A stretch of DNA of 33,289 bases from Candidatus Krumholzibacteriota bacterium (GCA_030613345.1 JAUWMD010000002.1:1-33289), one strand, 5' to 3'; positions 1,503 through 32,848 are shown, numbered from the stretch's first letter. Translations and numbers: made by a program. The notes: generated by a model from the sequence alone, not told the origin.

Positions 1503-1546
1503 TCTGTCAGGTTCATTGAATATCACGAACGCGGACGGAGGTGACC

Positions 1547-2626: not shown

Positions 2627-2629
2627 GTC

Positions 2630-3067: not shown

Positions 3068-3090
3068 TCCGGAGATGAAAGACGGCAGAG

Positions 3091-6321: not shown

Positions 6322-6377
6322 AGTGTTCAAGTAGTGTTATCCACAGTTACGAGGCACCAGACGCAGGATTGCTTCAG

Positions 6378-8099: not shown

Positions 8100-8122
8100 A
8101 CAGGAGAGGAAGGAGACTGACG

Positions 8123-8899
8123 ATGAAGAATACGGCAATCTGGGCGCTGGCGATCTGGGTGCTGGTCATGGCGTTCGTCACGTGCATTCCCGGGCGTGCC
8201 GCAGCGCAGATCGATCCCTACGATATTCAGGACGCTTTCGGGCGCTTCCCGTTCGCAAGGGTGATCCCTCTGGACAACGGGAATGCATGGGGGATGATCT
8301 ACGTCGACGTCTACGGCAGGATCTATCTCAAACGTGCCACGAACAGGGGATGGAAGAGGGAATTTGAGATCACGAACCTCGGGGCCAAGGTGAAAAGCTA
8401 TGATATCCTGGACGTTGAGCAGGACGGGGTCCTGGAACTCGTGATTTCGACCATGGCTGGACGCATCCTGATCTACAGTCTCGACGACTATACCAATACC
8501 TGGGAAAACATCGAGGACGACTTCACGAGCATAGAGGCATTTGACATCGAGAATGTGGACCACGACCCCCAGGTGGAATTCATCGTCCTGGCAAACGGGA
8601 CACTCTATATCATAGATTCGATCGACAAGAGCAGGCAGTGGATCAGCGAGAGGAAGTTCACGGCGACCGAACTGATAGTAGCCAATGTCGATAAGGACGA
8701 GCAGAAAGAGATAATCCTCAACACGGGTATTGTCATAGACACCAAGTTCTATGTGATAGACCTCGAATGGGACAAGCCGTTCGGCGAACGGATCAGCACG
8801 TTCGACTTCAATAACGACGGCATTCCAGAGGTGATAGGCGAATTCTCCGATTATTCGCTGAGGATATTCGACGTCTACTCCCAGAGAGAGATCTGGTAG
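8123..8899 (+). CDS. Secreted hypothetical protein with FG-GAP/VCBS-like repeats
   Basis: It has a signal peptide (AIWALAIWVLVMAFVTCIPGRAAAQ). Calcium-loop-like repeats recur: DVEQDGVLELVI, NVDHDPQVEFIVL, NVDKDEQKEIIL and DFNNDGIPEVIG. Confidence 0.6.
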   Translation: MKNTAIWALAIWVLVMAFVTCIPGRAAAQIDPYDIQDAFGRFPFARVIPLDNGNAWGMIYVDVYGRIYLKRATNRGWKREFEITNLGAKVKSYDILDVEQDGVLELVISTMAGRILIYSLDDYTNTWENIEDDFTSIEAFDIENVDHDPQVEFIVLANGTLYIIDSIDKSRQWISERKFTATELIVANVDKDEQKEIILNTGIVIDTKFYVIDLEWDKPFGERISTFDFNNDGIPEVIGEFSDYSLRIFDVYSQREIW

Positions 8900-8917
8900 G
8901 TAGAATACTCTGCCAGG

Positions 8918-9586
8918 TCATCTAGGCCTGAATCCGATCGTTACGCGTACCCACATTGACGTGGGAACGCCTCTTATTTCGCCCGGAATAAACTTGTATC
9001 GGCGTGCGGCCTCGATGGCGGTCCTGTTGAGCGACTCCTGCCGCATCCCCTTGGCCAGCCTGATCTCCTCTACCTCACCCTGTACGTTGACGAAGAGAAG
9101 CAGCTCGACTCCTCCGTTGATCTCTCCGTTGATATCGTCGGGGATGGTGGGGAGTGAGATGTTTATCGGTTTCGGCTCGACCGTGGTGAGCCTCGGTCCG
9201 GGCCTTCCGTCACTTCCGCCGCTCCTGCTGCCGCTCTGTATCGGATCGATCGTCAGTGAGGGCTCGCCGAGCTCCTCGATGAACGATCTCTCGCGGTCCT
9301 CCTCCTCCGTGTCCGAGGGCTGCTCCTCGACGATGACGGCCTGGGGAAAATCGGGATAGGGGATGAGGGAGAACGGCCTGTTGATGTAAACAAAATCGGA
9401 TGTTCCTTCATCGCCGGGCGGCTTCGTCCGCAAGACCTCGAGATATTCGAGTTTGAAGAAAGCGAAGATGGCGAGGTGTACGAGGAGGGTAGCCCCGATT
9501 ATCAGAAGCCAGCCCTTCCTGGTCCTGGAGTGACTGTGAAAGGGTCTCTTTCTACGGGAAGCTTCAGTTGCGTCAGGACTGGACAT
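8918..9586 (-). CDS. TonB-family energy transducer-like protein
   Basis: The layout is an N-terminal TM helix (GWLLIIGATLLVHLAIFAFF), an acidic/Pro-rich linker, then a TonB C-terminal fold block (GGVELLLFVNVQGEVEEIRLAKG...SLNRTAIEAARRYKFIPGEIRGVPTSMWVRVTIGF). Confidence 0.75.
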   Translation of the reverse strand: MSSPDATEASRRKRPFHSHSRTRKGWLLIIGATLLVHLAIFAFFKLEYLEVLRTKPPGDEGTSDFVYINRPFSLIPYPDFPQAVIVEEQPSDTEEEDRERSFIEELGEPSLTIDPIQSGSRSGGSDGRPGPRLTTVEPKPINISLPTIPDDINGEINGGVELLLFVNVQGEVEEIRLAKGMRQESLNRTAIEAARRYKFIPGEIRGVPTSMWVRVTIGFRPR

Positions 9587-19841: not shown

Positions 19842-20420
19842 ATGCTTAAAAGAGAAGTGGTTTACGAGTCTGTACTGGATCATGATTTTCTCGACGAGAT
19901 CTATTCGCTTCCCGGCGGACAAGAGATAAAGAAGTGTATCCAGTGCGGGACATGCAGCGGTTCATGCCCGCAGGGCGCCGTTATGGACTACGCTCCGAGG
20001 AAGATATTCTCCCTCATAAGGGCCGGATTCAGGGACGAGGTGCTCGAATCGAACACTATATGGTACTGCTCGTCGTGCTATACATGCGCTGTGAGATGTC
20101 CCAAGGAGATCAAGATCACCGACGTCATGTACGCCCTCAAACGCATCGCAATCAAGGAAGGCAAGGCGAAGAAAGGGAGGAAAGCGGCGATCCTTTCGAA
20201 TAATTTCGTCAGATTGGTAAACAAGTACGGGCGGAATCACGAGACAGAGCTTATGACCCGTTACATACTGTTTGCGGAGCCGCATCACGCCTTCAATTTC
20301 ATTCCCCAGGGCTGGAAGCTTTTCTCTAACGGCCGCCTGCCCATAATGCCTCACAAGATTAAGAATATCGATCAGTTACGAAAGATCCTGAAGAAGGTCG
20401 ACGAGCTGGGGGAAATATAA
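19842..20420 (+). CDS. hdrC: Heterodisulfide reductase subunit C-like (2x[4Fe-4S]), copy 1
   Basis: Cluster motifs are CIQCGTCSGSCP and CSSCYTCAVRCP, with conserved KITDVMYALKRIA. Its stop overlaps the hdrB start (TAATG). Confidence 0.9.
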   Translation: MLKREVVYESVLDHDFLDEIYSLPGGQEIKKCIQCGTCSGSCPQGAVMDYAPRKIFSLIRAGFRDEVLESNTIWYCSSCYTCAVRCPKEIKITDVMYALKRIAIKEGKAKKGRKAAILSNNFVRLVNKYGRNHETELMTRYILFAEPHHAFNFIPQGWKLFSNGRLPIMPHKIKNIDQLRKILKKVDELGEI

Positions 20421-21319
20421 TGAAGTACACTTATTATCCCGGGTGTTCCGTGAAGGCGACCGCGAATCTTTACCAGGAATCGATCGACTCCGTTACCCCC
20501 TTGCTCGGCATAGAACTCGAGGAACTGGAAGACTGGAACTGCTGCGGAGCGACAGCCTACATGTCTGTCAGGGAGCTGATGAGCTTCGCCATCTCCGCAA
20601 GGAACCTGGCGCTGGCTGAGAAGCACCACCGCGACATCGTAACTCCGTGCAGCGCCTGCTACCTCGTCCTGAAAAAGACCAACCAGTATTTCGCCGATTA
20701 TCCCAATCTGAGAAAGAAGCTCGGCCAGGCTCTCGAAGCCGGCGGTCTGAGCTACAGCGGCAACACGCGGGTCCGGCATATACTCAACGTGATCGTCAAC
20801 GATGTCGGTATGGAAAAGATCGCCGGACTGGTTAAAAAGAAGCTCAAAGGTCTCAACGTCGCTCCTTACTACGGTTGTCAGATCGTCAGGCCTCACTACT
20901 ACGGGTGTGGAGCGGACGAGGAGAATATTGATGATCCGGACAATCCGGTCAGCATGGACAGGTTGATCGAGGCAACTGGAGCCACCTGCGTCAAGTATTC
21001 GATGAAGACGAAATGTTGCGGTTCGTCTTTGATGGGTACCGAGGAAAAGCAGGCTATGAAGCTGTGCATGGAGATCCTGGCCGACGCGGAAAGCAACGGG
21101 GCTCATTGCATCGTGACGATCTGCCCGCTGTGCCAGATGAACCTCGATGTTTACCAGTCGAAGGTAAACAGGCTGTTCGGCACGAAATTCAATATTCCTG
21201 TCATATACTTCACGCAGCTGATAGGGCTGGCGTTGGACAGACCGGCGAAGGAACTCGGGCTGGGAAGGCTCGCGGTGAAGATGACCAGGCCGATGAAACA
21301 GATACTACAGGGAGCGTGA
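20420..21319 (+). CDS. hdrB: Heterodisulfide reductase subunit B-like (two CCG domains), copy 1
   Basis: The first CCG domain is YYPGCS...NCCGA...PCSACY and the second is YYGCQ...KCCGSS...CPLCQ. Confidence 0.92.
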   Translation: MKYTYYPGCSVKATANLYQESIDSVTPLLGIELEELEDWNCCGATAYMSVRELMSFAISARNLALAEKHHRDIVTPCSACYLVLKKTNQYFADYPNLRKKLGQALEAGGLSYSGNTRVRHILNVIVNDVGMEKIAGLVKKKLKGLNVAPYYGCQIVRPHYYGCGADEENIDDPDNPVSMDRLIEATGATCVKYSMKTKCCGSSLMGTEEKQAMKLCMEILADAESNGAHCIVTICPLCQMNLDVYQSKVNRLFGTKFNIPVIYFTQLIGLALDRPAKELGLGRLAVKMTRPMKQILQGA

Positions 21320-21320
21320 T

Positions 21321-23324
21321 ATGTCTGAACGTATTGGTGTATACGTCTGCCACTGCGGTACGAACATCGCCGGCAAGGTAGACATCGACGAGGTGGTCGA
21401 GTTCGCCAAAGGGCTTGATGACGTCACGCTCGTGAGGGAATACAAGTTCATGTGTTCCGATCCCGGGCAGTCGCTCATCCAGAAAGATATCGAGGATGGC
21501 CTGATCAACAGGGTCGTCGTCGCGTCCTGCTCTCCGTTGATGCACGAGAAGACATTCAGGAACGTGTGCACCCGTGGTGGCCTGAACGAATACCTCTTTA
21601 CGATGGCCAATATCCGCGAGCAGTGCTCGTGGGTGCACGTAGATGTCGAACGGACGACGGACAAGGCGAAGGACCTGATAGAAGCGGCTGTAAGAAGGAC
21701 GAGGCTCCAGGAGCCCCTGACGAAGAGGGAAGTCCCGATCAACCCGAGGACTCTGGTCATCGGCGGCGGCATAGCCGGCATACAGGCAGCGCTCGACCTT
21801 GCCGACGCCGGCAAGAATGTCGTTCTCGTCGAGAAGGAGCCCTCGATCGGCGGCCACATGGCCAAGTTCGACAAGACCTTTCCGACGCTCGATTGCTCGG
21901 CATGTATCCTGACACCAAAAATGGTATCGGTCGGCCAGCACGAGAACATCGAGCTGATGTCCTGGTCGGAGGTCGAGGATGTCGGCGGCTATGTCGGAAA
22001 CTTCAACGTCACAGTCCGAAAGAAGGCAAGGTACGTTGACGTGGATCTGTGCAACGGATGCGGCGCCTGCTGGGAGAAGTGCCCGGGAACGCGGGTGCCC
22101 CGCAAGGGCAACGTCCATGAGAAACTCTCGCTCGGACCTGTGACTTCGATATTTATACCTTTCATGCAGGCAGTGCCGGCGATCCCGGTGATAGACGCCG
22201 AAACCTGCATCCGTTTCAAGAACGGCAAGTGCGGTATCTGCGCCGAGGTATGCGAACGCAACGCGATCAAGTACGACATGGAGGACGAGTTGGTCGAGTT
22301 CGAGGTAGGCAACATCATCCTTGCCACCGGCTTCCAGCCCTTCGATCCGGCACAGATCGGGAATTATGGCTACGGGATATTCGACAACGTCCTTACCGCC
22401 GTAGAATTCGAGATAATGAACTGCGCCTCCGGCAACACGGGCGGAAATATCCTGATGGCCGACGGGACCGAACCAAAATCGATCGGAATAGTCCATTGTG
22501 TGGGAAGCCGGGACAAGAATTACAACGAATATTGTTCGAGGGTCTGCTGCATGTACGCCCTGAAATACGCGCATCTTATAAAGGAGAAGATCGATGCGGA
22601 AGTCTACGATTTCTACATCGACATGAGATGTTTCGGCAAGGGGTACGAGGAATTCTATGACAGGCTGCTGGGGGAGGACGTTAGGTTCGTTCGCGGCAAG
22701 GTGGCTGAAGTCACCGAAGTGCATCTGGAGGAGGCTGAAAGGGGAAAACTCGTCGTCAAGGTGGAGGACACGCTGGTCGGTTCGATACGCCGGATCCCGC
22801 TCGACATGGTCGTTCTATGCACTGGTCTCGAAGCGCACGAGACCCTTCCCGCCGTGGCGAATCTCTGCAACGTCAGTATCGGCAAGGACGGTTTTGTCAT
22901 AGAGAAGCATCCCAAGCTCGGCCCCGTTGCCACGGCGACGGACGGGGTTTTTATCGCAGGCGCTTGCCAGTCGCCGAAAGACATCCCCGATACGGTCGCC
23001 CAGGCTTCAGCCGCTTCGAGCGCGGTCCTGTCGATGATCACAAGGGAAAAGATCGAGATCGAATCGGCAACGGCGGAAGTAAACGAGGACAAGTGTTCGG
23101 GCTGCAAGATATGTAACACTCTGTGTCCTTATCTGGCGATCAAGTATGATGAGGAGAAAGGGGTCTCCGTCGTCAACGAGGCTCTTTGCAAGGGTTGCGG
23201 GACATGCGTTGCGGGGTGCCCCAGCAATGCGATATCGGCAAAGCATTTCCAGAACAACCAGATCCTGGCAGAAATCGAGGGGATCCTCCGCAGCAGCAGT
23301 GGACAGGCCGGAATTTTGGCTTGA
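21321..23324 (+). CDS. hdrA: Heterodisulfide reductase subunit A-like FAD/Fe-S flavoprotein, full length, copy 1
   Basis: The N-terminal Cys cluster is VYVCHCGTNIAG..FMCSDPG..SCSPLMHE..REQCSW, and the FAD fold is GGGIAGIQAALDLA..GGHM..FDKTFPTLDCSACILTPKM. The inserted ferredoxin is CNGCGACWEKCP...CIRFKNGKCGICAEVC. The C-terminal ferredoxin is CSGCKICNTLCP...CKGCGTCVAGCP. Confidence 0.93.
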   Translation: MSERIGVYVCHCGTNIAGKVDIDEVVEFAKGLDDVTLVREYKFMCSDPGQSLIQKDIEDGLINRVVVASCSPLMHEKTFRNVCTRGGLNEYLFTMANIREQCSWVHVDVERTTDKAKDLIEAAVRRTRLQEPLTKREVPINPRTLVIGGGIAGIQAALDLADAGKNVVLVEKEPSIGGHMAKFDKTFPTLDCSACILTPKMVSVGQHENIELMSWSEVEDVGGYVGNFNVTVRKKARYVDVDLCNGCGACWEKCPGTRVPRKGNVHEKLSLGPVTSIFIPFMQAVPAIPVIDAETCIRFKNGKCGICAEVCERNAIKYDMEDELVEFEVGNIILATGFQPFDPAQIGNYGYGIFDNVLTAVEFEIMNCASGNTGGNILMADGTEPKSIGIVHCVGSRDKNYNEYCSRVCCMYALKYAHLIKEKIDAEVYDFYIDMRCFGKGYEEFYDRLLGEDVRFVRGKVAEVTEVHLEEAERGKLVVKVEDTLVGSIRRIPLDMVVLCTGLEAHETLPAVANLCNVSIGKDGFVIEKHPKLGPVATATDGVFIAGACQSPKDIPDTVAQASAASSAVLSMITREKIEIESATAEVNEDKCSGCKICNTLCPYLAIKYDEEKGVSVVNEALCKGCGTCVAGCPSNAISAKHFQNNQILAEIEGILRSSSGQAGILA

Positions 23325-23432
23325 CGTGTTAGGAGAGTTTGGTTAGCATAAGTCTCTATTTTTCACCGTTTTTCGATGGGGGGCGGAGCAGGCTTCTTCT
23401 CACGTGTAACTTGAATATTCGGCGGGAGTGGA

Positions 23433-24005
23433 ATGAATACGCACAAGCTCAAGCAAAAAGCCATCGATAAGGATTTTCTTGATGAGATTGCGCATCTGCC
23501 CGGCGGAGAGCGGATTATCGACTGCTTTCAGTGCGGTACCTGCAGCGGCTCCTGCCCGACAGCTCACGTGATGGATCACACGCCCCGCCGTCTGTTCGCG
23601 ATGGTGAAAGCGGGGTTCCGCGAGGATGTACTCAACAGCAACACATACTGGTACTGCACTTCCTGCTACATATGCACTGTCAGGTGTCCGCGCCAGATAA
23701 AGATCACCGATGTAATGTACGCGTTGAAGCGAATAGCCCTTAAGGAGAGGTACGTTCGGAGAAAGAACGCAGCGGGGGCATTTTACAGTTCCTTCGTCGA
23801 TATTGTCGAGCGGGATGGAAGGAGCTTCGAACCGGAACTGATGGTCCGCTTCATGCTGAAGACCGACCCCACGCTTCTCCTGAAAAATGCTGTGCTGGGG
23901 CTGAAGCTCATGAAACACGGCCGCCTTCCGATTCGCCGTAACAGGATCAAGGCCAGAAACGAGTTGAGAGCGATCATTCGAAAGGCAAAGAGCGAAAGCT
24001 TGTAA
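23433..24005 (+). CDS. hdrC: Heterodisulfide reductase subunit C-like, copy 2
   Basis: Cluster motifs are CFQCGTCSGSCP and CTSCYICTVRCP, with the same KITDVMYALKRIA block as copy 1. It has a TAATG overlap with hdrB2. Confidence 0.9.
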   Translation: MNTHKLKQKAIDKDFLDEIAHLPGGERIIDCFQCGTCSGSCPTAHVMDHTPRRLFAMVKAGFREDVLNSNTYWYCTSCYICTVRCPRQIKITDVMYALKRIALKERYVRRKNAAGAFYSSFVDIVERDGRSFEPELMVRFMLKTDPTLLLKNAVLGLKLMKHGRLPIRRNRIKARNELRAIIRKAKSESL

Positions 24006-24889
24006 TGGCGACGAAACAGAGCTATATCTATTATCCCGGTTGTTCGGCCGAGGCGACGGGAAAGCCGTACGAGATTTCGGCGAGAGCTGTATGCGAGCAC
24101 CTGGATATAGAGCTGAAGGAACTTGCCGACTGGAACTGCTGCGGCGCTACGGCTTATCTCTCCGTCGAGGATATTGCCTCGATGGCGGTAGCCGCGAGAA
24201 ATCTGGCCATCGCCGAATCGACCGGACTCGACCTCATTACGCCATGCAGCGCCTGCTATATCACGCTGAGCAAGGTCGACCACTATTTCGAAGATTATCC
24301 GGACATACGTACGAAGATCAACAACGCACTCTCCGCCGCGGGACTGGAATACAAAGGGGGAGTAAATGTCCGGCACCTCCTGTATGTATTTTCCGAAGAC
24401 ATCGGGATGGAACGCCTCTCCGGCATGGTCAGGGCGGATTTGTCTTTGAGGGTGGCTCCGTACTACGGCTGCCAGGTCGTAAGACCGTTCACCGAAAGGG
24501 ACAGCCCAGATGTCCCGTTCGCGATGGACGAAATCATCTCAGCCCTTGGCGGCGATGTCGTGGATTATCCTCTCAAGACAAAATGCTGCAGCGGAGCGTT
24601 GATCGGCATCGACGAAAAAACCGCTCTGGGTCTCGCGAAGCCGCTCATCGAATGCGCCGTACGCAGCGGCGCCGACTGCATAGTGACATGCTGCCCCCTG
24701 TGTCAGCTCAATCTTGACGCCTACCAGTACAAGATCAACAAGGTATACGGGACGAATTACCATATTCCAGTGTTGTTTTTCACGCAATTGATCGGGCTCG
24801 CGTTCGGTATCGACGAGGGAAGACTCGGTCTGAATATGAACATTGTGCCGTACAGGCCGGCCGCTAGAGCGAAAGGTGCTTCAGGATGA
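24005..24889 (+). CDS. hdrB: Heterodisulfide reductase subunit B-like, copy 2
   Basis: The CCG domains are YYPGCS...NCCGA...PCSACY and YYGCQ...KCCSGA...CPLCQ. It has an ATGA overlap with the next gene. Confidence 0.92.
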   Translation: MATKQSYIYYPGCSAEATGKPYEISARAVCEHLDIELKELADWNCCGATAYLSVEDIASMAVAARNLAIAESTGLDLITPCSACYITLSKVDHYFEDYPDIRTKINNALSAAGLEYKGGVNVRHLLYVFSEDIGMERLSGMVRADLSLRVAPYYGCQVVRPFTERDSPDVPFAMDEIISALGGDVVDYPLKTKCCSGALIGIDEKTALGLAKPLIECAVRSGADCIVTCCPLCQLNLDAYQYKINKVYGTNYHIPVLFFTQLIGLAFGIDEGRLGLNMNIVPYRPAARAKGASG

Positions 24890-25743
24890 CCAAGAATGGA
24901 GCGAAGGAAGAAACGCCACGGATCGGCGTGTACTTGTGTCACTGCGGGTCGAACATCGCCGGGATGGTCAATATCCCGGAGGTTGCCGAGTTCGTGAGGG
25001 AACTGGACAATGTCGCGCTTGTCAGAGACTACCGATTCATGTGTTCGGAACCCGGCCAGGAACTGATCGCCAAGGATATCAAGGAGCATGATCTCGAACG
25101 GGTCGTCGTCGCCGCCTGCAGCCCACTTATGCACGAAAAGACTTTTCGCGAAGCCGTGGAAACGGCCGATCTCAACCGTTATCTCATGCAGATGGCCAAT
25201 GTCAGGGAACATTGCTCCTGGGTGACCGCCGACAGTTCATACGCCACGGAAAAGGCGAAGGCTCTCGTGGCTGCTGCGGTCGGCAAGGCGGTATGGCTGG
25301 AGCCCCTGAAAACCAAGAAAGTCCCTATCCATCCTGATACGCTGATAGTGGGTGGAGGAATAGCCGGTATCCAGGCGGCATTGATCATTGCCGAGGCCGG
25401 CAAGAAGGTGTATCTGGTCGAACGTTCCCCCGCCCTGGGCGGCCATATGTCGCATTTCGACAAAACATTCCCGACGCTGGACTGCGCCGCATGCATACTG
25501 ACTCCGAAGATGGTGGCGGTCGGCAAACATCCGAACGTTGAACTGTTGACATGGTCCGAGGTCGAGGAAGTATCCGGATACATCGGAAATTTCACGATCA
25601 AGATCAGGAAAAAACAGCGCTTCGTCGACGAGGACCGCTGTAACGGTTGCGGAGACTGCTGGGAAGCATGCCCCAGTACGACATCACCCAGAAAGAGAAG
25701 AATCACGATCGAGGGCAGGTTGATCAATGAAAGAGTGCTGTAA
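24886..25743 (+). CDS. hdrA: HdrA-like N-terminal half (N-domain, first part of the FAD fold, first CxxCxxCxxxCP of the inserted ferredoxin); split-gene product
   Basis: It is colinear with HdrA1 aa 1 to ~258: VYLCHCGSNIAG, FMCSEPG, ACSPLMHE, REHCSW, GGGIAGIQAALIIA, GGHM..FDKTFPTLDCAACILTPKM and CNGCGDCWEACP (25639-25674). Homology ends after ..PRK, and a TAA stop lies at 25741-25743. Confidence 0.85.
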   Translation: MTKNGAKEETPRIGVYLCHCGSNIAGMVNIPEVAEFVRELDNVALVRDYRFMCSEPGQELIAKDIKEHDLERVVVAACSPLMHEKTFREAVETADLNRYLMQMANVREHCSWVTADSSYATEKAKALVAAAVGKAVWLEPLKTKKVPIHPDTLIVGGGIAGIQAALIIAEAGKKVYLVERSPALGGHMSHFDKTFPTLDCAACILTPKMVAVGKHPNVELLTWSEVEEVSGYIGNFTIKIRKKQRFVDEDRCNGCGDCWEACPSTTSPRKRRITIEGRLINERVL

Positions 25744-26233
25744 CTCCGGACGAAACATGTCGAAGATCAAGGAAGTGCGGCCCGAGAAAGTGGCGGAGAT
25801 ACTGGAGAGCTTCGAGCATCGTGTCGATTCGCTGATCATGATCCTCCAGGACATCCAGGAAGAGTACCGGTACCTGCCCGAGGATGCGCTTCGGATCGTC
25901 GCTGATGATCTGGATCTTCCGTTATCCCAGCTTTACGAGGTGGCAACGTTCTATCGCTCGTTCAGTCTGGAGCCGCGCGGAACGCACGAGGTGAAGGTCT
26001 GCCTGGGAACGGCCTGTCATCTCAGGGGAGGCCCCATGATCCTTGAAAACTTCGAAAGGGTACTGGGAGTGAAAGCCGGGCAGACGACGCCGGATCTCGA
26101 CTTCACGCTTGAAACGGTAAACTGCGTAGGAGCCTGCGCACTGGCACCGCTGGTACTCGTAGATTCCGATTACCACGGCGAGACGAGACCGAGTAAGGTC
26201 AAGGATATATTGGGCAAGTATTCACAGAAGTAG
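25727..26233 (+). CDS. nuoE: NuoE/HydC-type thioredoxin-like [2Fe-2S] protein
   Basis: The cluster motifs are VCLGTACHLRG (C-x4-C) and NCVGACALAP (C-x3-C). GAGGGCAGG lies 8 nt upstream of the ATG at 25727, and the ATG at 25757 is an alternative start. Confidence 0.88.
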   Translation: MKECCNSGRNMSKIKEVRPEKVAEILESFEHRVDSLIMILQDIQEEYRYLPEDALRIVADDLDLPLSQLYEVATFYRSFSLEPRGTHEVKVCLGTACHLRGGPMILENFERVLGVKAGQTTPDLDFTLETVNCVGACALAPLVLVDSDYHGETRPSKVKDILGKYSQK

Positions 26234-26239
26234 GACGCC

Positions 26240-28141
26240 ATGTCGGTTGAAACGAATATTCGTTTCCAGTCTCCTCCAGAGCTTTCCGCTTTTCGTGACC
26301 GGCTGAGCTCCGAGCGCAGGGATGACATTAACAGGATCACGATATGCGCTGGAACGGGATGTGTCGCCAAGGGAAGCATACGTGTGTTTGAGAAATTTAC
26401 CGAGGCGATCGAATCCCGTCAGCTCGACGCGACGGTCGAGCTGAAGATTTCAGGTTGCCACGGCTTTTGCGAGAATGGCCCCCTCGTCGTCATGAAACCG
26501 GCAGGCATCCTGTACATGGAGGTAAGAGAGCGGGACGTGGATGATATCGTCGAAAAAACAGTTACAACCGGCGAAATCATCGAAAGACTCCTGTACAAGG
26601 ATCCGGTTTCGGGCGAACGAGCACGGAACGAGGATGAGATCCCTTTCTACAAGAAACAGATGCGCGTCGTTCTACGCAATATCGGCAAGATCGATCCCAA
26701 CAACATCGATGATTACATAGCCGTCGGCGGCTATTCCTCGCTCGCCAAGGTTCTTTCCGGTCTCCAGCCTGAAGAGGTCATCTCGATGATCGAGCGATCG
26801 GGGCTGCGCGGACGAGGAGGGGGAGGATTCCCGACGGGCAGGAAATGGAGATCGTGCAGGAATGCACCGGGGGACATCCACTATGTCGTTTGCAACGGTG
26901 ATGAAGGAGATCCCGGAGCGTTCATGGACCGAAGTCTAATGGAAGGGGATCCGCACAGTATTCTGGAAGGAATGATCATCGGCGCATACGCCATCGGTGC
27001 GGAAGACGGGTTCGTTTACGTACGTATGGAGTATCCCCTCGCGATCGAGCGCCTGTTGAATGCGATACGGGATGCGGAGGTGTACGGACTTCTTGGTGGG
27101 AACATACTCGGATCCGGCTTTGATTTCAGGATCAGGATCAACAGGGGGGGCGGAGCGTTCGTGTGCGGTGAGTCTACGGCGCTGATGGCATCTCTGGAAG
27201 GGAGGGCCGGCGAACCCCGGGCGAAATACATACATACCGTCGAGAAGGGCCTCTGGGATAAACCGACGAACCTGAACAACGTCGAAACATGGGCAAATGT
27301 TCCGCCCATCATCGAGCGGGGCCCCGAATGGTTCAGTTCCCTGGGAACTGATGGCAGCAAGGGAACGAAGGTGTTCTCACTCGTTGGCAAGGTGAAGAAC
27401 ACGGGTCTCGTCGAGGTGCCCATGGGAATCACGCTTCGTGAGATCCTTTTCGATATCGGTGGGGGCGTCAAGGGCACGAAAAAATTCAAGGCTGTTCAGA
27501 CTGGCGGCCCATCCGGCGGATGCCTCGTCGTCGATGTAGAGGAGAAGGGAAAGAAGGGCGCGTTCAACTTGATCGATCTCCCGGTAGATTTCGACCGGTT
27601 GACAGAGGTCGGATCGATGATGGGATCCGGCGGGATGATCGTTATGGATGAGGATGACTGCATGGTCGATGTCGCCAAATATTTCCTCAGCTTCCTGAAA
27701 GAGGAATCGTGCGGCAAATGCGTACCGTGCAGAGAGGGAATACGACACATGCTCACGATACTCGACAGGATCACGAACGGAGAGGGAAGCGCGGAGGATC
27801 TGCAGCTGCTCGAGGAGCTTGCTGAAACGATAGCCGAAGCGTCGCTCTGCGCTCTTGGAACCCAGGCGCCAAATCCGATCCTGAGCACTTTGAACTATTT
27901 CAGATCCGAATACGAAGCGCACATATTCGAAGGGAAGTGCCCAGCGGGGGTATGCAAGCAGCTGGTGACATACTCGATATCGGCGGATAACTGTACCGGC
28001 TGCACACTCTGCGCGAAGAACTGTCCGGCCGGTTGCATCAGCGGCGAGCCGAAGGAATTGCACACCCTTGATTCGAGCACATGTATCAAGTGCGGTATCT
28101 GTTACGACGTGTGCAATTTCGACGCGGTGATCAGGAGATAA
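26240..28141 (+). CDS. nuoF: NuoF/HydB-type NAD(H)-binding FMN Fe-S flavoprotein with an N-terminal [2Fe-2S] domain and a C-terminal 2x[4Fe-4S] domain
   Basis: The N-terminal domain carries ICAGTGC...SGCHGFC. The core carries GLRGRGGGGFPTGRKW (FMN), VVCNGDEGDPGAF (NADH) and ESCGKCVPCREG...LCALG (the N3-type cluster). The C-terminus carries CTGCTLCAKNCP and CIKCGICYDVC. Confidence 0.92.
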   Translation: MSVETNIRFQSPPELSAFRDRLSSERRDDINRITICAGTGCVAKGSIRVFEKFTEAIESRQLDATVELKISGCHGFCENGPLVVMKPAGILYMEVRERDVDDIVEKTVTTGEIIERLLYKDPVSGERARNEDEIPFYKKQMRVVLRNIGKIDPNNIDDYIAVGGYSSLAKVLSGLQPEEVISMIERSGLRGRGGGGFPTGRKWRSCRNAPGDIHYVVCNGDEGDPGAFMDRSLMEGDPHSILEGMIIGAYAIGAEDGFVYVRMEYPLAIERLLNAIRDAEVYGLLGGNILGSGFDFRIRINRGGGAFVCGESTALMASLEGRAGEPRAKYIHTVEKGLWDKPTNLNNVETWANVPPIIERGPEWFSSLGTDGSKGTKVFSLVGKVKNTGLVEVPMGITLREILFDIGGGVKGTKKFKAVQTGGPSGGCLVVDVEEKGKKGAFNLIDLPVDFDRLTEVGSMMGSGGMIVMDEDDCMVDVAKYFLSFLKEESCGKCVPCREGIRHMLTILDRITNGEGSAEDLQLLEELAETIAEASLCALGTQAPNPILSTLNYFRSEYEAHIFEGKCPAGVCKQLVTYSISADNCTGCTLCAKNCPAGCISGEPKELHTLDSSTCIKCGICYDVCNFDAVIRR

Positions 28142-28149
28142 GGATTTAG

Positions 28150-29925
28150 ATGGAAGAAAAGGAAGCAAGTCAGGTTCTCGTGCATCTGGAAGTCGACGGG
28201 AAATCCGTATCCCTCGCTGAGGGTTCCACGATCCTCGATGCGGCCAAACTGCTCGGCGTACAAATCCCGACGCTGTGCTATACGCCTCTGGTCGAGCCAT
28301 ACGCCGCATGCCGCCTCTGTTCCGTCGAGGTCGAGTATCCCCGCGGCGGAGGCAAGGTCGTGACCGCCTGCAATTACCAGGTATGGGACGGTATCAAGGT
28401 GCGCACGGACACCGACAAGATACGTCGTATTCGCGGCATGATCGTAGAAATGCTCCTCGCGCGATGCCCGGATATCCAGGTACTGAAAGATCTCGCCGAA
28501 GAATACGGTATCGAGAAGGTTCGTCTCGAGAAGCAGGAAGAGGGGTGCATTCTCTGCGGCCTCTGCGTGCGGGTCTGCGCAGAGCTAGTCGGGGCGCATG
28601 CGATCTCATTTGCGGGCAGAGGCCTCGACCGCCGGGTAGCGACTCCGTACGACAAGTCGAGTGACGCCTGTATCGCGTGCGGTGCATGCGCACTGGTATG
28701 CCCGACGAAGATCATTCATGTCGAGGATCAGGAAGGTCGCGAAATCATCCATGAAGAACTCTCTCTGGGACCTTCCAAAGCGATCACCCTGCCGTTTATG
28801 CAGGCGGTGCCGAATATACCATATATCGACACGGAACATTGCATACATTTCCAGACAGGTGAGTGTGGGTACTGCGCGAAGATCTGCGACAGGGATGCGA
28901 TCGATTACGAATTGCAGGAAGAAACGATCGAGGTGGATGTGGGGAATATAATCATGGCGACGGGCTTCGAACTGTTCGACCCTTCCGTAATGGGACAATA
29001 CGGCTACGGGCGCCTGAAAAACGTGGTAACCTCGCTCGAATTCGAGCATCTGAACTGCGCCGCGGGACCAACCGGCGGACGGATCCTGATGACCGACGGC
29101 GGAGAGCCGTCGAGTGTCGGAATCATACACTGCGTCGGAAGCAGGGACGAGAATTATTACAAGTACTGTTCCCGGGTATGCTGCATGTATGCGCTGAAAT
29201 ACGCGCACCTGATAAAGGAAAAGACAGATGCGGACGTCTATAGTTTTTACATCGATATGAGATGCTTCGGAAAGGGATACGAGGAATTCTACCACAGGCT
29301 GCTCGAGGAAGGGGTCCAGTTCATCAGGGGACGGGCGGCGGAGATCACCGATTACGCGATAGATTCCGACGAAGAGGGAAAGCTGATTGTCCTCTGCGAG
29401 GATACCCTGATAGGCGCCCTTCGCCGGATACCTCTCGATATGGTGGTGTTGTGCTCCGCCATGAAATCGAATGAGGATGCCAAGGAGCTGTCGCGAATAT
29501 TCTCGTGCAGCCTGGGAAGCGATGGCTTCTTCATTGAGAAACATCCGAAACTCGCACCGGTATCCACTACTTCCGACGGAGTATTCATCGCCGGCGGCTG
29601 TCAGGGTCCGAAGGATATTCCGGATACCGTGGCTCAGGGAGCGGCGGCTGCAGCCGAAGTCCTTTCGCTGATTGACAGGAAAGAAGTCGAGGTCGAAGCG
29701 GCGATCGCTGTCGTGGACGAGGATCGATGCTCCGGATGCAAACTGTGCAACACGCTCTGTCCGTACCTCGCTGTCAAGTACGATGAGGAAAAAGGCGTTT
29801 CCGTGGTGAATGAAGCGCTCTGCAAGGGATGCGGTACCTGTGCCGCGGGATGTCCGAGTAACGCCATATCCGCGAGACACTTCGAGAACAGACAGATATT
29901 CGCCGAGATAGAAGGTCTTCTTTGA
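28150..29925 (+). CDS. hdrA: Fusion protein: NuoG/HydA-N-terminal-type [2Fe-2S] + 2x[4Fe-4S] module (aa 1-200) joined to the HdrA C-terminal half (aa ~201-591)
   Basis: The N-terminal module carries CYTPLVEPYAACRLCSVEV..TACNY, CILCGLCVRVC and CIACGACALVCP (28669-28704). From HEELSLGP (nt 28750) it is colinear with HdrA1 from HEKLSLGP (nt 22116) to the C-terminus. Shared blocks are CIHFQTGECGYCAKIC (28840-28887), IHCVGSRD, CSRVCCMYALKYAHLIKEK, DMRCFGKGYEEFY, GVFIAGGCQGPKDIPDTVAQ and CSGCKLCNTLCP...CKGCGTCAAGCP. Confidence 0.88.
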   Translation: MEEKEASQVLVHLEVDGKSVSLAEGSTILDAAKLLGVQIPTLCYTPLVEPYAACRLCSVEVEYPRGGGKVVTACNYQVWDGIKVRTDTDKIRRIRGMIVEMLLARCPDIQVLKDLAEEYGIEKVRLEKQEEGCILCGLCVRVCAELVGAHAISFAGRGLDRRVATPYDKSSDACIACGACALVCPTKIIHVEDQEGREIIHEELSLGPSKAITLPFMQAVPNIPYIDTEHCIHFQTGECGYCAKICDRDAIDYELQEETIEVDVGNIIMATGFELFDPSVMGQYGYGRLKNVVTSLEFEHLNCAAGPTGGRILMTDGGEPSSVGIIHCVGSRDENYYKYCSRVCCMYALKYAHLIKEKTDADVYSFYIDMRCFGKGYEEFYHRLLEEGVQFIRGRAAEITDYAIDSDEEGKLIVLCEDTLIGALRRIPLDMVVLCSAMKSNEDAKELSRIFSCSLGSDGFFIEKHPKLAPVSTTSDGVFIAGGCQGPKDIPDTVAQGAAAAAEVLSLIDRKEVEVEAAIAVVDEDRCSGCKLCNTLCPYLAVKYDEEKGVSVVNEALCKGCGTCAAGCPSNAISARHFENRQIFAEIEGLL

Positions 29926-29962
29926 GCTTGAAATAAGATAAACAGATGGAAGGGATGATGCG

Positions 29963-30448
29963 ATGAGTTTCGAGCCTAGGATAGTCGGATTCCTCTGCAA
30001 CTGGTGTTCTTACACGGGGGCCGATCTCGCCGGGACGGCAAGGATCAAGTACGCTCACAACATCAGGTCTATCAGAGTGATGTGCAGCGGCAGGATCGAG
30101 CCGACCTACATCATGAAGGCGCTCTATGAAGGCGCGGATGGGGTGCTTATCGCTGGTTGTCATCCTGGAGATTGCCACTATCAGGAAGGCAATTACAAGG
30201 CGCTCAGGCGGTACATGCTTCTGAAACGTATCCTGTCCGAATACGGCATCGAACCGGAGCGCCTCAGGCTCGAATGGGTGGCGGCATCGGAGGGAGAACG
30301 ATTCGCCAGGATCGTTGACGATTTCACAGAGCAGTTACGGAAACTTGGTCCGCTTGCCATAAAGGAATCGATCGCCGAAGCGATGAAGGACGACATTGAT
30401 CCTCATGAAGCTCACAACGTAGAAAGCGGTGAGGCAGATGAAGCTTAA
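29963..30448 (+). CDS. mvhD: MvhD/FlpD-type hydrogenase delta subunit ([2Fe-2S] electron-transfer protein)
   Basis: It carries IVGFLCNWCSYTGADLAG...IRVMCSGRIEP...GADGVLIAGCHPGDCHYQEGN, the canonical MvhD pattern. Confidence 0.9.
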   Translation: MSFEPRIVGFLCNWCSYTGADLAGTARIKYAHNIRSIRVMCSGRIEPTYIMKALYEGADGVLIAGCHPGDCHYQEGNYKALRRYMLLKRILSEYGIEPERLRLEWVAASEGERFARIVDDFTEQLRKLGPLAIKESIAEAMKDDIDPHEAHNVESGEADEA

Positions 30449-31391
30449 AGGCGGTATCTACTGGGGAGCTGGATGTGGCGGTTGCGATGTCGCCGTGCTC
30501 GACCTCCATGAAAAAATCCTCGATGTAGCCGAGAAGATGGACCTGCTGTTCTGGCCCATCGCACTCGATTTCAAATACGACGATGTCCGGGCCATGGAAG
30601 ACGCCGAGTTCGATATCGTCCTGTACAACGGGGCGATCAGAAATTCTGAAAACGAAGAGATGGCCAAACTCCTCAGGCGCAAGTCGAAGACCATGGTCGC
30701 CCTCGGAGCCTGTGCTCATATCGGCGGGCTGCCCAGCCTGGCCAACTATCACACGAAGCAGTCAGTGTTGGAGCGAGTCTACTTGGAGACTGAATCGAAC
30801 GAAAATCCCGACGGCACAATGCCGTTGGAGAGGTCGACTGTGGACGGAAACGAGCTTGAGCTTCCGAGATTCTACAACACTGTCAAGACGCTCGATCAGG
30901 TCGTCGACGTTGATTACTATATTCCCGGTTGCCCACCCGTTCCTGAACAGATATTTTCTGCCCTTTCCGCCGTTTTCATCGGTGAGCTTCCCCCGAAAGG
31001 GTCTGTGATCGGGGCCGGTACTAAAACCCTCTGCGACGAGTGCCCGCACGAGAAGGAAGAGAAAGAGATAAGCATTATCAAGCGGCCTCTCGAGATGATC
31101 CCCGAGCCGGGGAAATGCCTGCTCGAACAGGGTCTCATCTGTCTCGGGCCGGTCACGAGGGAGGGGTGCGGCGCCAGGTGCATCAACTCCGGTGTGCCGT
31201 GCAGGGGATGTTACGGTCCCCTTGATGACGTATACGATCAGGGAGTCAAGATGGTCAGCGCGCTCGCCTCGGTCCTGGAACCGAAGGAAGAGAAAGAGAT
31301 CGACAAGGTGCTCGATGGGATAGTCGATCCGCTCCGGACATTTCACAGGTTCAGCACTGCTGCTTCGATACTGAGGAGGAAAAAGGTATGA
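30438..31391 (+). CDS. mvhG: [NiFe]-hydrogenase small subunit, group 3 (MvhG-type)
   Basis: Motifs are GCGGCDVAVLD, GACAHIGG, YIPGCPP, CDECPH and CLGPVTREGCGARCINSGVPCRGCYGP. The ATG at 30438 is preferred, and the tracked GTG at 30429 is also possible. The gene overlaps the end of mvhD. Confidence 0.9.
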   Translation: MKLKGGIYWGAGCGGCDVAVLDLHEKILDVAEKMDLLFWPIALDFKYDDVRAMEDAEFDIVLYNGAIRNSENEEMAKLLRRKSKTMVALGACAHIGGLPSLANYHTKQSVLERVYLETESNENPDGTMPLERSTVDGNELELPRFYNTVKTLDQVVDVDYYIPGCPPVPEQIFSALSAVFIGELPPKGSVIGAGTKTLCDECPHEKEEKEISIIKRPLEMIPEPGKCLLEQGLICLGPVTREGCGARCINSGVPCRGCYGPLDDVYDQGVKMVSALASVLEPKEEKEIDKVLDGIVDPLRTFHRFSTAASILRRKKV

Positions 31392-32848
31392 AGCGCGTAG
31401 ATATAGATCCGATCACACGCCTCGAAGGCCATGGGAAGATAAGCATATTCATCAACGACGACGGATCGGTCGAGAACGCATACCTTCAGATTCCGGAGTT
31501 GAGGGGGTTCGAGAAATTCGTAGAGGGTCTCCCTGTGGAGGAGATCCCCCGGATCATGCCTAGGATATGCGGCGTTTGCCCGGCGGCCCATCACATGGCC
31601 GCGGGGAAAGCCGTTGACAACGTGTTTAGAGTGGAGATTCCGCTGGTAGCTAAAAAACTCCGGGAAATGTATTACATGGCGCATTATATCCATAGCCACG
31701 CCGCTCATTTCTACGCTCTCGCGGCTCCGGATTTCGTTCTCGGACCACAGGCCCCGAAGGCCGAAAGAAATGTTCTCGGGCTGATAAACAAGGTCGGATT
31801 GAAGCTCGGCAGGGAAGTGCTCAGGCAGAGAGGGATTTCGCAGGAAATACAGATTATGATAGGAGGCCGCGCCACGCATCCCGTATGGAACATTCCCGGC
31901 GGAGTGACGCGTGCACTCAGCGACGAGAACGCAGAGAAGGTCAAGAGTCTTGCCGCTGAACAGGTCGGCTTCGCAGAGCTGAGCCTGAAGTTGTTCAACG
32001 ATCTCGTATTGAGCAACAGCGACTATCTCGAGCTTATAATGGGCGATATATTCGAACAGGTGACCAACTACATGGGGCTGGTCGACGATGACAATAAGGT
32101 GAATTTCTACCATGGGAAGGTACGGGTTACGGATATAAACGGGGAAGAGTTGTTCAAGTACTCCGAACCGGAATACCTCGATTACATAGCCGAACATGTC
32201 GAACCTTGGTCCTACCTTAAATTCCCCTATATCAAGGACAGGGGCTGGAAAGGATTCGTCGAGGGCGAAGGGACTCCTCTCTTCCAGGCCAATCCGCTTC
32301 CGCGGCTCAATGCGGCGGACGGGATGGCGACACCGAAGGCTCAGGAAGAGTACGAGAAGATGTTCGAGACCGTCGGCGGAAAACCGTGCCACAAGCTGAT
32401 GGTGAACCACTGGGCGAGGCTCATAGAGATGCTCTATGCCGCCGAGCGGATGCAGGAGTTGATCAACGATCCGGAGATCACAGATCCGAACGTAAGGGTG
32501 ATCCCATCGACCACGCCGAGAGAGGGTGTGGGAATCGTCGAGGCCCCTCGCGGAACACTCACGCATCACTACTGGACCGACGAGAACGGGATCGTGACCA
32601 AGGCAAACCTGATCGTCGGGACGACGAATAACAACGCCTCGATAAACATGGCCGTCAAAAAGGCGGCCCAGAATCTCATCAAGCCGGGCGGCGAAGTGAC
32701 CGAAGGGCTGCTCAACATGGTCGAGATGGCGTTCCGTCTGTACGATCCGTGCTTCAGCTGCGCTACGCACAGTCTGCCCGGAAAGATGCCGCTTACAGTC
32801 GAGATACGCGATCTCGACGGCGAGATACTGAACGAGGTATCGAGGTAG
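31388..32848 (+). CDS. mvhA: [NiFe]-hydrogenase large subunit, group 3c (MvhA-type)
   Basis: It has N-terminal RLEGHGKI and RICGVCPAAH (L1). The C-terminal DPCFSCATH (L2) is followed by a 25-aa extension, which would be the protease substrate. It has an ATGA overlap with mvhG. Confidence 0.93.
   Translation: MKRVDIDPITRLEGHGKISIFINDDGSVENAYLQIPELRGFEKFVEGLPVEEIPRIMPRICGVCPAAHHMAAGKAVDNVFRVEIPLVAKKLREMYYMAHYIHSHAAHFYALAAPDFVLGPQAPKAERNVLGLINKVGLKLGREVLRQRGISQEIQIMIGGRATHPVWNIPGGVTRALSDENAEKVKSLAAEQVGFAELSLKLFNDLVLSNSDYLELIMGDIFEQVTNYMGLVDDDNKVNFYHGKVRVTDINGEELFKYSEPEYLDYIAEHVEPWSYLKFPYIKDRGWKGFVEGEGTPLFQANPLPRLNAADGMATPKAQEEYEKMFETVGGKPCHKLMVNHWARLIEMLYAAERMQELINDPEITDPNVRVIPSTTPREGVGIVEAPRGTLTHHYWTDENGIVTKANLIVGTTNNNASINMAVKKAAQNLIKPGGEVTEGLLNMVEMAFRLYDPCFSCATHSLPGKMPLTVEIRDLDGEILNEVSR

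Follow-up and report, generated by a model that had tools for sequence, protein, structure and literature searches.

Flavin-based electron bifurcation is the main source of low-potential electrons in strict anaerobes, and to our knowledge four bifurcation engines are known, two of which are HdrA and the HydBC/Bfu core. Both kinds of gene meet in a stretch of DNA of 33,289 nucleotides from Candidatus Krumholzibacteriota bacterium (GCA_030613345.1 JAUWMD010000002.1:1-33289), the whole of which is called the window below. A second hdrA gene of this window, hdrA2, is cut into two open reading frames (ORFs) inside the sequence coding for its inserted ferredoxin domain; a nuoE-like and a nuoF-like gene of apparent Bfu type lie between the two pieces, and the C-terminal piece is fused to a BfuA/NuoG-type Fe-S head.

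A first point of comparison is the MvhAGD-HdrABC complex of methanogens (5ODC; Wagner et al. 2017). Its components hdrC, hdrB, HdrA, mvhD, mvhG and mvhA are all present at the locus, and the HdrA sequence is colinear with chain 5odc_A. The locus differs in having HdrA in two chains, a BfuA head on the C-terminal piece, bfuC and bfuB between the pieces, and a bacterial host.

A second is class II benzoyl-CoA reductase (BCRII), BamBCDEFGHI, which like the locus joins a HydBC/Bfu-type module for NADH and ferredoxin, BamGHI, to an HdrA-type bifurcating protein (BamE), an MvhD-like protein (BamF) and an HdrBC-like protein (BamD) (PMC9304861; bioRxiv 10.64898/2026.04.10.717634). In the Bam enzyme, however, BamI, which corresponds to BfuA, is a separate protein, and BamE is a fused and permuted HdrA dimer rather than a split HdrA. 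Moreover, its Bfu module feeds HdrA through the C-terminal ferredoxin domain and BamF, its low-potential output goes to the tungsten subunits BamBC, and it works without a hydrogenase. No AOR gene, which would correspond to the AOR-type BamB of that enzyme, was found in the window, and HdrA2 is split, not doubled.

The third is the Bfu family, represented by NiFe-HydABCSL (7T2R) and Wor-Bfu (9MQX). The BfuB- and BfuC-like proteins of the locus match members of this family over their full length, the head is best matched by BfuA of Wor-Bfu, and the hydrogenase large subunit MvhA is close to that of NiFe-Bfu. NiFe-HydABCSL associates an Mvh-like hydrogenase with Bfu but lacks Hdr, which the locus has. 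An Hdr-linked type is not listed in the text of the Bfu classification (PMC9304861), and Hdr terms are absent from one of its supplementary files.

Position of the cut in HdrA2

The genes concerned, with the similarities on which their names are based, are the following.

24886..25743, + strand: hdrA2-N, 285 amino acids (63% identity to residues 2-265 of HdrA1; 5odc_A residues 2-258, E 1e-100)
25727..26233, + strand: nuoE/hydC/bfuC-like gene, 168 amino acids, thioredoxin-like [2Fe-2S] subunit (Pfam 2Fe-2S_thioredx, E 1e-48; NCBIfam HoxE/NuoE; conserved position)
26240..28141, + strand: nuoF/hydB/bfuB-like gene, 633 amino acids (Pfam domains; full-length PDB matches)
28150..28749, + strand: BfuA/NuoG-type Fe-S head, fusion residues 1-200 (Pfam Fer2_4 and Fer4_7; 9mqx_A, E 2e-38)
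28750..29925, + strand: hdrA2-C, fusion residues 201-591 (64% identity to HdrA1; 5odc_A residues 245-649, E 5e-115)
28150-29925, + strand: whole fusion ORF (head::HdrA-C), 591 amino acids

HdrA2 is thus not a single polypeptide of about 650 amino acids but the product of two ORFs, 2.4 kb apart, with two other genes between them. Alignment with HdrA1, the intact paralogue encoded in the same window, locates the interruption precisely. Residues 10-273 of the N-piece correspond to residues 2-265 of HdrA1 with 63% identity and no gaps, and the N-piece ends at a TAA codon (25741-25743), 22 residues past the first Cys motif of the inserted ferredoxin domain. For the fusion, BLAST pairs residues 172-591 with residues 242-656 of HdrA1 at 64% identity, but colinear HdrA homology truly resumes only at about residue 199-201 (IHEELSLGP): the stretch 172-198 is the second CxxCxxCxxxCP motif of the head, matched to the first inserted-ferredoxin motif of HdrA1. 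The idea that this second head motif (C174-C184) completes the inserted ferredoxin domain was rejected, as residues 12-196 superpose as a unit on BfuA of 9MQX.

All HdrA cofactor motifs are found across the two pieces, in the N-terminal, FAD, inserted ferredoxin and C-terminal ferredoxin domains. Pfam assigns an FAD Rossmann domain and one Fer4 motif to the N-piece, and Fer2_4 (11-88), Fer4_7 (133-188) and C-terminal Fer4 domains to the fusion. The N-piece carries the cysteines of the N-terminal cluster domain (C18, C20, C53 and C78), the GGGIAG version of the GxGxxG Rossmann motif of the thioredoxin-reductase-like (TrxR-like) FAD domain, the inter-protomer Cys segment LDCAAC (C200/C203) and the first inserted-ferredoxin motif CxxCxxCxxxCP (C252-P263), after which comes a conserved tail of 22 amino acids. 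The segment equivalent to LDCAAC in methanogen HdrA gives Cys197 to the cluster of the partner protomer (PMC9012536). The C-piece carries the second Cys motif of the inserted domain (C231/239/242/246), the residues E299 and K350, which align with the flavin-site Glu and Lys of 5odc_A (E356 and K409), and the cysteines of the TrxR-domain cluster, C328/340/344/345, equivalent to C386/399/403/404 of 5odc_A. It ends with the 2x[4Fe-4S] ferredoxin domain (C527-C568).

Since Cys motif 1 lies in the N-piece and motif 2 in the C-piece, the cut falls in the connector of about 35 residues that joins the halves of the inserted ferredoxin domain. As the FAD domain is shared between two chains, neither piece should be able to bind FAD alone. 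Judging from the distribution of the motifs, both chains are needed to assemble the FAD site, the N-piece contributing the Rossmann part and the C-piece the Lys, the Glu and the TrxR cluster. In 2x[4Fe-4S] ferredoxins, each cluster is bound by three cysteines of one motif and by the fourth of the other (3+1 / 1+3). By this standard ligation pattern, both clusters of the inserted domain should be held by cysteines of both chains.

These alignments agree with the original prediction, drawn from the DNA sequence by a model, which had described the N-piece as colinear with HdrA1 from its start through the first inserted-ferredoxin motif and had placed the return of HdrA homology at about residue 201 of the fusion product, continuing to the C-terminus. 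They also bear out its view that every cofactor motif is kept in both halves, the ligand cysteines, the Lys and the Glu all being present, and that an FAD site would need the two polypeptides together.

The fusion protein alone was modelled with AlphaFold2 (AF2) from an alignment of 57 sequences. The model has a mean predicted local distance difference test score (pLDDT) of 76.9 and a predicted template modelling score (pTM) of 0.41. The head (residues 10-200) is confidently predicted (pLDDT about 90), and its superposition on 9mqx_A covers 179 columns with a deviation of 1.5 A. The pLDDT falls below 50 at the junction (203-223) and at residues 464-502, a region that contacts the FAD and the N-terminal part in intact HdrA. 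A Foldseek search with this model returned HdrA chains, which fit poorly overall (E about 6e-34), and, for the head, BfuA of 9MQX. Low confidence outside the head is weakly suggestive of a C-piece that needs the N-piece in order to fold.

Nature of the inserted genes

The 633-amino acid NuoF-like protein is composed, according to Pfam, of 2Fe-2S_thioredx (31-106), Complex1_51K, SLBB, NADH_4Fe-4S and two Fer4 domains (579-629), that is, of an N-terminal thioredoxin-like [2Fe-2S] domain, an FMN/NADH site, an SLBB domain, an NADH_4Fe-4S domain and a C-terminal 2x[4Fe-4S] domain. An additional N-terminal [2Fe-2S] domain and a C-terminal 2x[4Fe-4S] domain are the marks of bifurcating BfuB and are absent from non-bifurcating homologues (PMC9304861, Schut et al. 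2022). The closest solved relative is chain 9mqx_B (E 2e-236) of Wor-Bfu, a tungsten aldehyde oxidoreductase; further full-length matches are 7t2r_B (NiFe-HydABCSL), 8a6t_B, 7q4v_B and 7p5h_B (HydABC), and 9n5u_B and 9bov_B (NfnABC). Such bifurcating B subunits are matched from residue 9 or 33, approximately, to residue 630, whereas NuoF/Nqo1 chains are matched only over residues 140-561 or so.

The head resembles BfuA in the same way. Its residues 12-196 match BfuA of Wor-Bfu as one unit (9mqx_A, E 2e-38), and its cysteines predict three clusters, as in type 2 BfuA: a [2Fe-2S] cluster with ligands C43/54/57/74 and two [4Fe-4S] clusters at C133-C143 and C174-C184. No motif for a His-ligated cluster was seen in the head sequence. 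The locus thus has a candidate BfuB with the extra Fe-S domains, a candidate BfuC beside it and a BfuA-type head. The NuoE-like protein would therefore be BfuC, the NuoF-like protein BfuB and the head BfuA, and the module would be a HydBC/BfuBC core bifurcating between NAD(H) and ferredoxin. Its BfuB-type domains and full-length bifurcating relatives imply a ferredoxin site and a bifurcation centre that belong to the module itself. Read in this manner, the 'catalytic extension' of BfuA appears here to be the C-terminal two-thirds of HdrA.

It had been proposed that the ferredoxin branch of HdrA2 is hard-wired to an FMN/NAD(H) module. An NAD(H) module is present indeed, but it does not look like a plain NADH dehydrogenase, and two coupled bifurcating modules seem the better description.

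BfuB varies in some related loci, which are designated here by numbers with the prefix L. In L016 (5825-8962, 1045 amino acids) and L018 (6060-9041, 993 amino acids), from Dehalococcoidia and Aminicenantes respectively, it has a C-terminal GltD/NfnB-like fusion (Fer4_20 and Pyr_redox_2) which adds a probable second pyridine-nucleotide site, where BfuB of the window ends with the 2x[4Fe-4S] domain instead.

Conservation, selection and gene order

Homologues of both pieces were sought in a clustered collection of 5.8 billion proteins drawn from NCBI, JGI, ENA and Logan assemblies, and the best 120 clusters for each piece were compared. For the fusion, all of these clusters are 579-624 amino acids long, cover 97-100% of the query and share 56-91% identity with it; their source names include Aminicenantes, Dehalococcoidia, Deltaproteobacteria and Pseudomonadota. 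For the N-piece, 118 of the 120 clusters measure 258-303 amino acids. The CxxCxxCxxxCP motif occurs in all but one of the 120, and nearly all stop 20-29 residues after it, with a tail that forms a conserved motif (CPSxTxPR+RRIxIxx+xIxE) unlike the corresponding stretch of intact HdrA. In alignments of 121 fusion and 119 N-piece sequences, the cluster-ligand cysteines listed above are 99-100% conserved, those of the head (in the 121 sequences), of the inserted and C-terminal ferredoxin domains and C200/C203 of LDCAAC reaching 100%, and K350 and E299 are invariant.

Ratios of nonsynonymous to synonymous substitution rates (dN/dS) between the window and L023, a relative 91% identical in protein, are 0.056 for the 3' end of the N-piece, 0.085 for nuoE, 0.065 for nuoF, 0.080 for the fusion, 0.044 for mvhD and 0.049 for mvhA.

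The order hdrC-hdrB-hdrA_N-bfuC-bfuB-head::hdrA_C-mvhD-mvhG-mvhA was also found in L003, L018, L020, L021, L022, L023 and L026. Three of these come from metagenome-assembled genomes (MAGs) of Sumerlaeota (L003), Aminicenantes (L018) and Deltaproteobacteria (L020), and L021 and L022 lie on contigs of 4.07 and 3.18 Mb. In all the loci compared, hdrC and hdrB accompany the split hdrA and mvhD stands 3' of the fusion; an hdrC-like gene precedes hdrB-hdrA_N in L020, L021, L022 and L026. The Dehalococcoidia locus L016/L017 has a molybdopterin formate-dehydrogenase-like gene in place of mvhGA. A scan of genome contigs with the fusion protein returned mostly intact hdrA loci, with the head at L003 only.

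Because the split point, the lengths, the ligand cysteines and the gene order are all conserved across phyla, and because dN/dS lies between 0.04 and 0.09, the split, which is widespread in uncultured anaerobes, is functional, conserved and under purifying selection in many lineages, and is not decay. The contrary explanation would be a chimeric assembly, a frameshift introduced by sequencing, or an hdrA pseudogene into which a mobile nuoEF cassette had inserted. The sole hint in that direction is the nuoF of L020, which is broken into two ORFs, and it faces an identical split in more than 100 independent clusters from the four sources, contigs of 3-4 Mb among them, a conserved stop position and tail motif, the low dN/dS of the N-piece and a uniform composition. 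Artefact or decay is accordingly so improbable that it can be considered effectively excluded. The original prediction had argued for a functional split and insertion, had suggested a search for the order hdrA-N, nuoE, nuoF, Fe-S::hdrA-C in other genomes, and had named an assembly error at the split, or an N-terminal fragment decaying through stops and elevated dN/dS, as findings that would speak against it. The order recurs in several phyla, and neither adverse finding was encountered.

The strength of this conservation bears on another possibility, in which the split HdrA2 would be a non-bifurcating Fe-S/flavin adaptor docking MvhAGD on BfuABC. The enzyme would then be a NiFe-Bfu hydrogenase (H2 + NAD+ + ferredoxin <-> NADH + reduced ferredoxin), with HdrBC as an accessory or regulatory part. 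An Mvh-like hydrogenase does serve a BfuBC core in NiFe-HydABCSL (PMC9304861), and the second FAD of BamE, which is structural and non-bifurcating, illustrates that HdrA-like domains can lose their function. Nevertheless, the Lys and Glu of the FAD site, the cysteines of the TrxR cluster and the inter-protomer C200/C203 are 100% conserved, hdrC and hdrB, the CCG motifs intact, stand with the split gene in every case, and purifying selection is equally strong on all parts. We consider such an adaptor improbable.

Trees of the N-parts and of the C-parts were also built by a crude neighbour-joining procedure, without support values and with few intact sequences; in these, the intact HdrA1/L001 type nests within the split clade. 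Repeated splitting, re-fusion or a tree artefact could each account for that nesting.

A cassette of additional genes separates hdrA_N from bfuC in L018 (1250-5065), L021 (10857-14658) and L022 (10860-14674), and L003 has a 4-kb gap at the same place (1155-5206). Its genes code for DRTGG, HATPase, a HydS-like sensory [FeFe]-hydrogenase (Fe_hyd_lg_C with FeS), PHP and HATPase proteins. The locus of the window lacks the cassette. HydS-like H2-sensor and regulatory cassettes typically accompany HydABC operons, and the presence of one in these loci fits an origin of the arrangement by capture of a hydCBA-type operon inside hdrA.

Other particularities concern single loci. In L016 (10880-18008), the genes after the fusion are, in order, a CobA-like gene, mvhD, one for a Fer4 protein, the molybdopterin formate-dehydrogenase-like gene and an intact hdrA-hdrC-hdrB. 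Formate, and not H2, is the probable electron donor at this locus, which like the window has an intact Hdr set next to the split one. The fusion of L021 (17473-19086) was called as a protein of 537 amino acids without Fer2_4, and the tblastn match of the head begins only at query residue 46, which points either to a misplaced start call or to a truncated [2Fe-2S] domain. In L020 (7098-8979), no gene was called for bfuB, the sequence of which is spread over two ORFs (7098-8402 and 8422-8979) that differ in frame; an assembly frameshift and a real disruption are both possible.

Related head-HdrA architectures

A search for variants among 50%-identity representatives showed that the canonical fusion collapses mainly into one of them, P0241. 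In others the same parts are combined differently. P0257 (706 amino acids) has the head, HdrA-C and MvhD in one chain; P0243 and P0245 (about 1090 amino acids) have the head and HdrA-C followed by a second HdrA-like unit; and P0254 (736 amino acids) is an intact HdrA with extra Cys motifs in the inserted ferredoxin region. P0256 (660 amino acids; JGI 3300042731, on a contig of 20.8 kb) is an unsplit protein made of the N-part of the TrxR domain, a CxxCxxCxxxCP motif, the same BfuA-type head and the C-part of HdrA, without the N-terminal domain and without the C-terminal ferredoxin domain. Its gene adjoins a BamB-like AOR gene, a Fer4_11 gene and another HdrA-like gene. In the MAFFT alignment of P0256, the first Cys motif of HdrA is placed on the second motif of the head. 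As these sequences stand, the inserted ferredoxin domain looks like a general plug-in site of HdrA.

General structure of the locus

The split genes belong to a longer series on the + strand, the other members of which are given below.

19842-20420, + strand: hdrC1 (intact set 1)
20420-21319, + strand: hdrB1 (intact set 1)
21321-23324, + strand: hdrA1, intact, 667 amino acids
23433..24005, + strand: hdrC2, 190 amino acids, 2x[4Fe-4S] subunit of the second Hdr set (NCBIfam CoB_CoM_SS_C, E 2e-27)
24005..24889, + strand: hdrB2, 294 amino acids, CCG-domain disulfide reductase subunit (NCBIfam CoB_CoM_SS_B, E 3.5e-65; synteny)
29963..30448, + strand: mvhD, 161 amino acids, [2Fe-2S] adaptor (Pfam FlpD, E 2e-55)
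30429..31391, + strand: mvhG-like gene, [NiFe]-hydrogenase small subunit, 320 amino acids (Pfam Oxidored_q6; NCBIfam VhuG, E 8e-68)
31388..32848, + strand: mvhA-like gene, [NiFe]-hydrogenase large subunit, 486 amino acids (Pfam NiFeSe_Hases; NCBIfam VhuA; 5odc_F, E 6.5e-118)

Both CCG motifs are kept in the sequence of the hdrB2 product. The hydrogenase genes follow the Mvh-type (group 3c) pattern, with MvhD (FlpD), a small and a large subunit encoded together beside hdr genes, which suggests an Mvh-type enzyme; the NCBIfam matches to VhuD/G/A score under the equivalog cut-offs. The best PDB matches of MvhA are nearly equal, namely MvhA of 5ODC (5odc_F, 6.5e-118) and the large subunit of NiFe-Bfu (7t2r_D, 1.2e-115).

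From 23433 to 32848 the genes are tightly packed. The stop of hdrB2 and the start of hdrA2-N share an ATGA (24886-24889), hdrA2-N and nuoE overlap by 17 nt, and a Shine-Dalgarno-like AAGGA lies 6 nt ahead of the ATG at 28150. No internal stops or frameshifts were found in the ORFs of the split-hdrA region, and no terminator-like sites were found by consensus matching on the + strand between the genes of this interval; a promoter-like site, likewise a consensus match only, occurs at 23321-23349. Base composition is even across the region. The Pfam calls and these junctions uphold the remaining claims made from the raw sequence, namely that a NuoE-like gene, a NuoF/HydB-like gene and a head of 200 amino acids with 2Fe-2S/4Fe-4S domains stand between the HdrA halves, that these halves are free of frameshifts and internal stops, and that they are closely coupled to their neighbours.

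The window also holds an intact Hdr set. The products of hdrC1, hdrB1 and hdrA1 are 80%, 74% and 82% identical to those of the hdrCBA genes of a canonical hdrCBA-mvhDGA operon from a Krumholzibacteriales MAG (L001, 5825-12182), and mvhDGA of the window is 75-81% identical to mvhDGA of L001, as against 51-73% to mvhDGA of the split loci of other phyla. It follows that the 6.5-kb block 23433-29925 sits exactly between hdrA and mvhD of an otherwise canonical operon. The tandem order recurs, together with the EamA gene upstream of it, in L027 (4971-12623), a relative with 78% identity. In the window, a single mvhDGA follows the two Hdr sets. Mvh might thus serve both of them, or HdrA1 might form a heterodimer with the split HdrA2, set 1 being either a separate enzyme or a partner protomer; heterodimers of HdrA paralogues have been proposed in anaerobic methanotrophic archaea (ANME) (PMC9012536). 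The intact paralogue is not required, since other phyla have only the split set.

The 5' part of the window is ordinary chromosome. It contains genes for an H+-pyrophosphatase (40-1401, cut by the window start), RtcB (3091-4542), a gamma-glutamyltranspeptidase (6369-8099) and a TonB-C protein (8918-9586), which fit a bacterium of Gram-negative type.

Proposed mechanism and alternatives

From the gene content and the domain arrangement, it seems somewhat probable that the interval 23433-32848 encodes one multi-subunit Mvh-Hdr-Bfu enzyme with a two-chain HdrA2, in which two bifurcations would operate in series through the low-potential exit of HdrA. The complex would consist of MvhAGD, HdrB2C2, the two-chain HdrA2 and BfuBC. 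The two pieces of HdrA2 would reassemble the HdrA fold, and the BfuA head, from which only some 16 residues lead to the point where HdrA sequence returns, would act as an Fe-S wire from the inserted ferredoxin domain to the FMN/Fe-S centre of BfuB. In the H2-oxidising direction, electrons would pass from MvhAG through MvhD to the FAD of HdrA, which would send one electron to HdrC2B2, reducing a disulfide, and a low-potential electron to BfuBC by way of the inserted ferredoxin domain and BfuA. There, a second bifurcation would share electrons between NAD+ and ferredoxin.

In methanogen HdrA, the inserted ferredoxin domain is the low-potential exit towards ferredoxin (PMC9012536), and the position of the fusion in the sequence leads us to infer that the junction of the two modules lies at this exit. 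A wiring at the inserted ferredoxin domain is also supported by the single-chain protein P0256, which has the same head at the same place of HdrA, and BCRII offers a precedent for Hdr and Bfu modules working in one complex (bioRxiv 10.64898/2026.04.10.717634). The HdrA-NfnB proteins of ANME-1 are a precedent for a pyridine-nucleotide module placed within the inserted ferredoxin domain (PMC9012536).

Several points weigh against this scheme. BCRII is the only solved enzyme with both Hdr and Bfu modules, and its Bfu module feeds the input side of HdrA and not the inserted ferredoxin domain. The position of a fusion in a sequence is no proof of an electron path. Passing low-potential electrons to NAD+ looks energetically wasteful, unless the second bifurcation is the very purpose. 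The HydS-like H2-sensor cassettes of many loci hint at a fermentative, H2-evolving role. Finally, an intact HdrA1B1C1 set also stands ahead of the single mvhDGA of the window, which makes the composition of the complex ambiguous.

Some of these points favour the same complex working with the opposite logic, as in BCRII. BfuBC would then confurcate NADH and reduced ferredoxin as the input, electrons would enter HdrA through BfuA, and HdrA would relay or bifurcate them to HdrBC and to MvhD-MvhAG for H2 evolution. The enzyme would be a redox valve of fermentative or syntrophic metabolism, under the control of the HydS-like H2 sensor that many loci encode. In BCRII, BamGHI is precisely such a confurcating input to the HdrA module; the HydS-like, PHP, HATPase and DRTGG genes that separate hdrA_N from bfuC in L018, L021 and L022, with the gap in L003, would provide the regulation; and MvhA resembles the large subunit of the reversible NiFe-Bfu hydrogenase (7t2r_D) no less than it does MvhA of 5ODC. 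Carriers of the split genes include bacteria labelled Aminicenantes and Dehalococcoidia, which are mostly fermenters. The head, however, is fused at the inserted ferredoxin domain, which is the low-potential exit in 5ODC, whereas BCRII takes its input at the C-terminal ferredoxin/MvhD side, and the input position is already held by MvhD and MvhAG, or by formate dehydrogenase in L016. In addition, a thermodynamic gain over an ordinary HydABC is not evident, and the locus of the window is devoid of the sensor cassette. On balance, we regard this reversed logic as rather unlikely.

The serial scheme, with H2 oxidation feeding HdrA2 and BfuBC downstream of it, can be extended to the whole family. 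We tentatively raise the possibility, itself doubtful, of a widespread 'double-bifurcation' hydrogenase in which HdrA-type and Bfu-type bifurcations are coupled in series through inter-subunit [4Fe-4S] clusters of the split ferredoxin domain. If this were true, H2 (or formate) at low partial pressure could drive the reduction of NAD+ and of very-low-potential ferredoxin, paid for by the reduction of a disulfide. It would also represent a second type of enzyme, after class II benzoyl-CoA reductase, in which two bifurcation modules are coupled, and one that is far more widespread and wired the other way round.

Comparison with known systems

All the components described here belong to known families, and we could not find the combination, a split HdrA around a Bfu module, in print, so that it is apparently undescribed: in full-text literature searches, which did not extend to the review of HdrA diversity by Appel et al. 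2021, no description of an hdrA split by nuoEF or of a BfuA::HdrA fusion was found. The generic names of the proteins in databases ('heterodisulfide reductase subunit A', 'FAD-dependent oxidoreductase', '4Fe-4S binding protein', 'NuoEF') are of some consequence. Annotated piecemeal, such loci may pass for a standard Mvh-Hdr accompanied by an unrelated NADH dehydrogenase when the metabolism of uncultured anaerobes is reconstructed.

Bacterial HdrABC linked to NAD(H), as at our locus, is reportedly also found in the FlxABCD-HdrABC system of sulfate reducers, said to have been described by Ramos et al. in 2015. That system is said to differ from the locus in that an FlxA-type NAD(H) module is connected through the MvhD-like FlxD, HdrA is intact and BfuBC is missing.

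The HdrA9-11 proteins of ANME-1 (Chadwick et al. 2022, PMC9012536) provide another parallel, since a pyridine-nucleotide and potentially bifurcating module interrupts the same inserted ferredoxin domain. In contrast to the locus, the module of these archaeal proteins is an in-frame insertion of 500 amino acids within one polypeptide, and is of the NfnB/GltD type rather than NuoEF/Bfu. The split genes go a step further and suggest that neither the bifurcating FAD domain nor a 2x[4Fe-4S] ferredoxin domain has to be confined to one polypeptide, which informs the assembly and evolution of such complexes. According to a 2026 preprint, benzoyl-CoA reductase is the first complex reported to contain two bifurcation modules (bioRxiv 10.64898/2026.04.10.717634). 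The split-HdrA/Bfu family, with its more than 100 sequence clusters, would be the second such case, with a hydrogenase or a formate dehydrogenase as partner and a different point of connection between the two modules.

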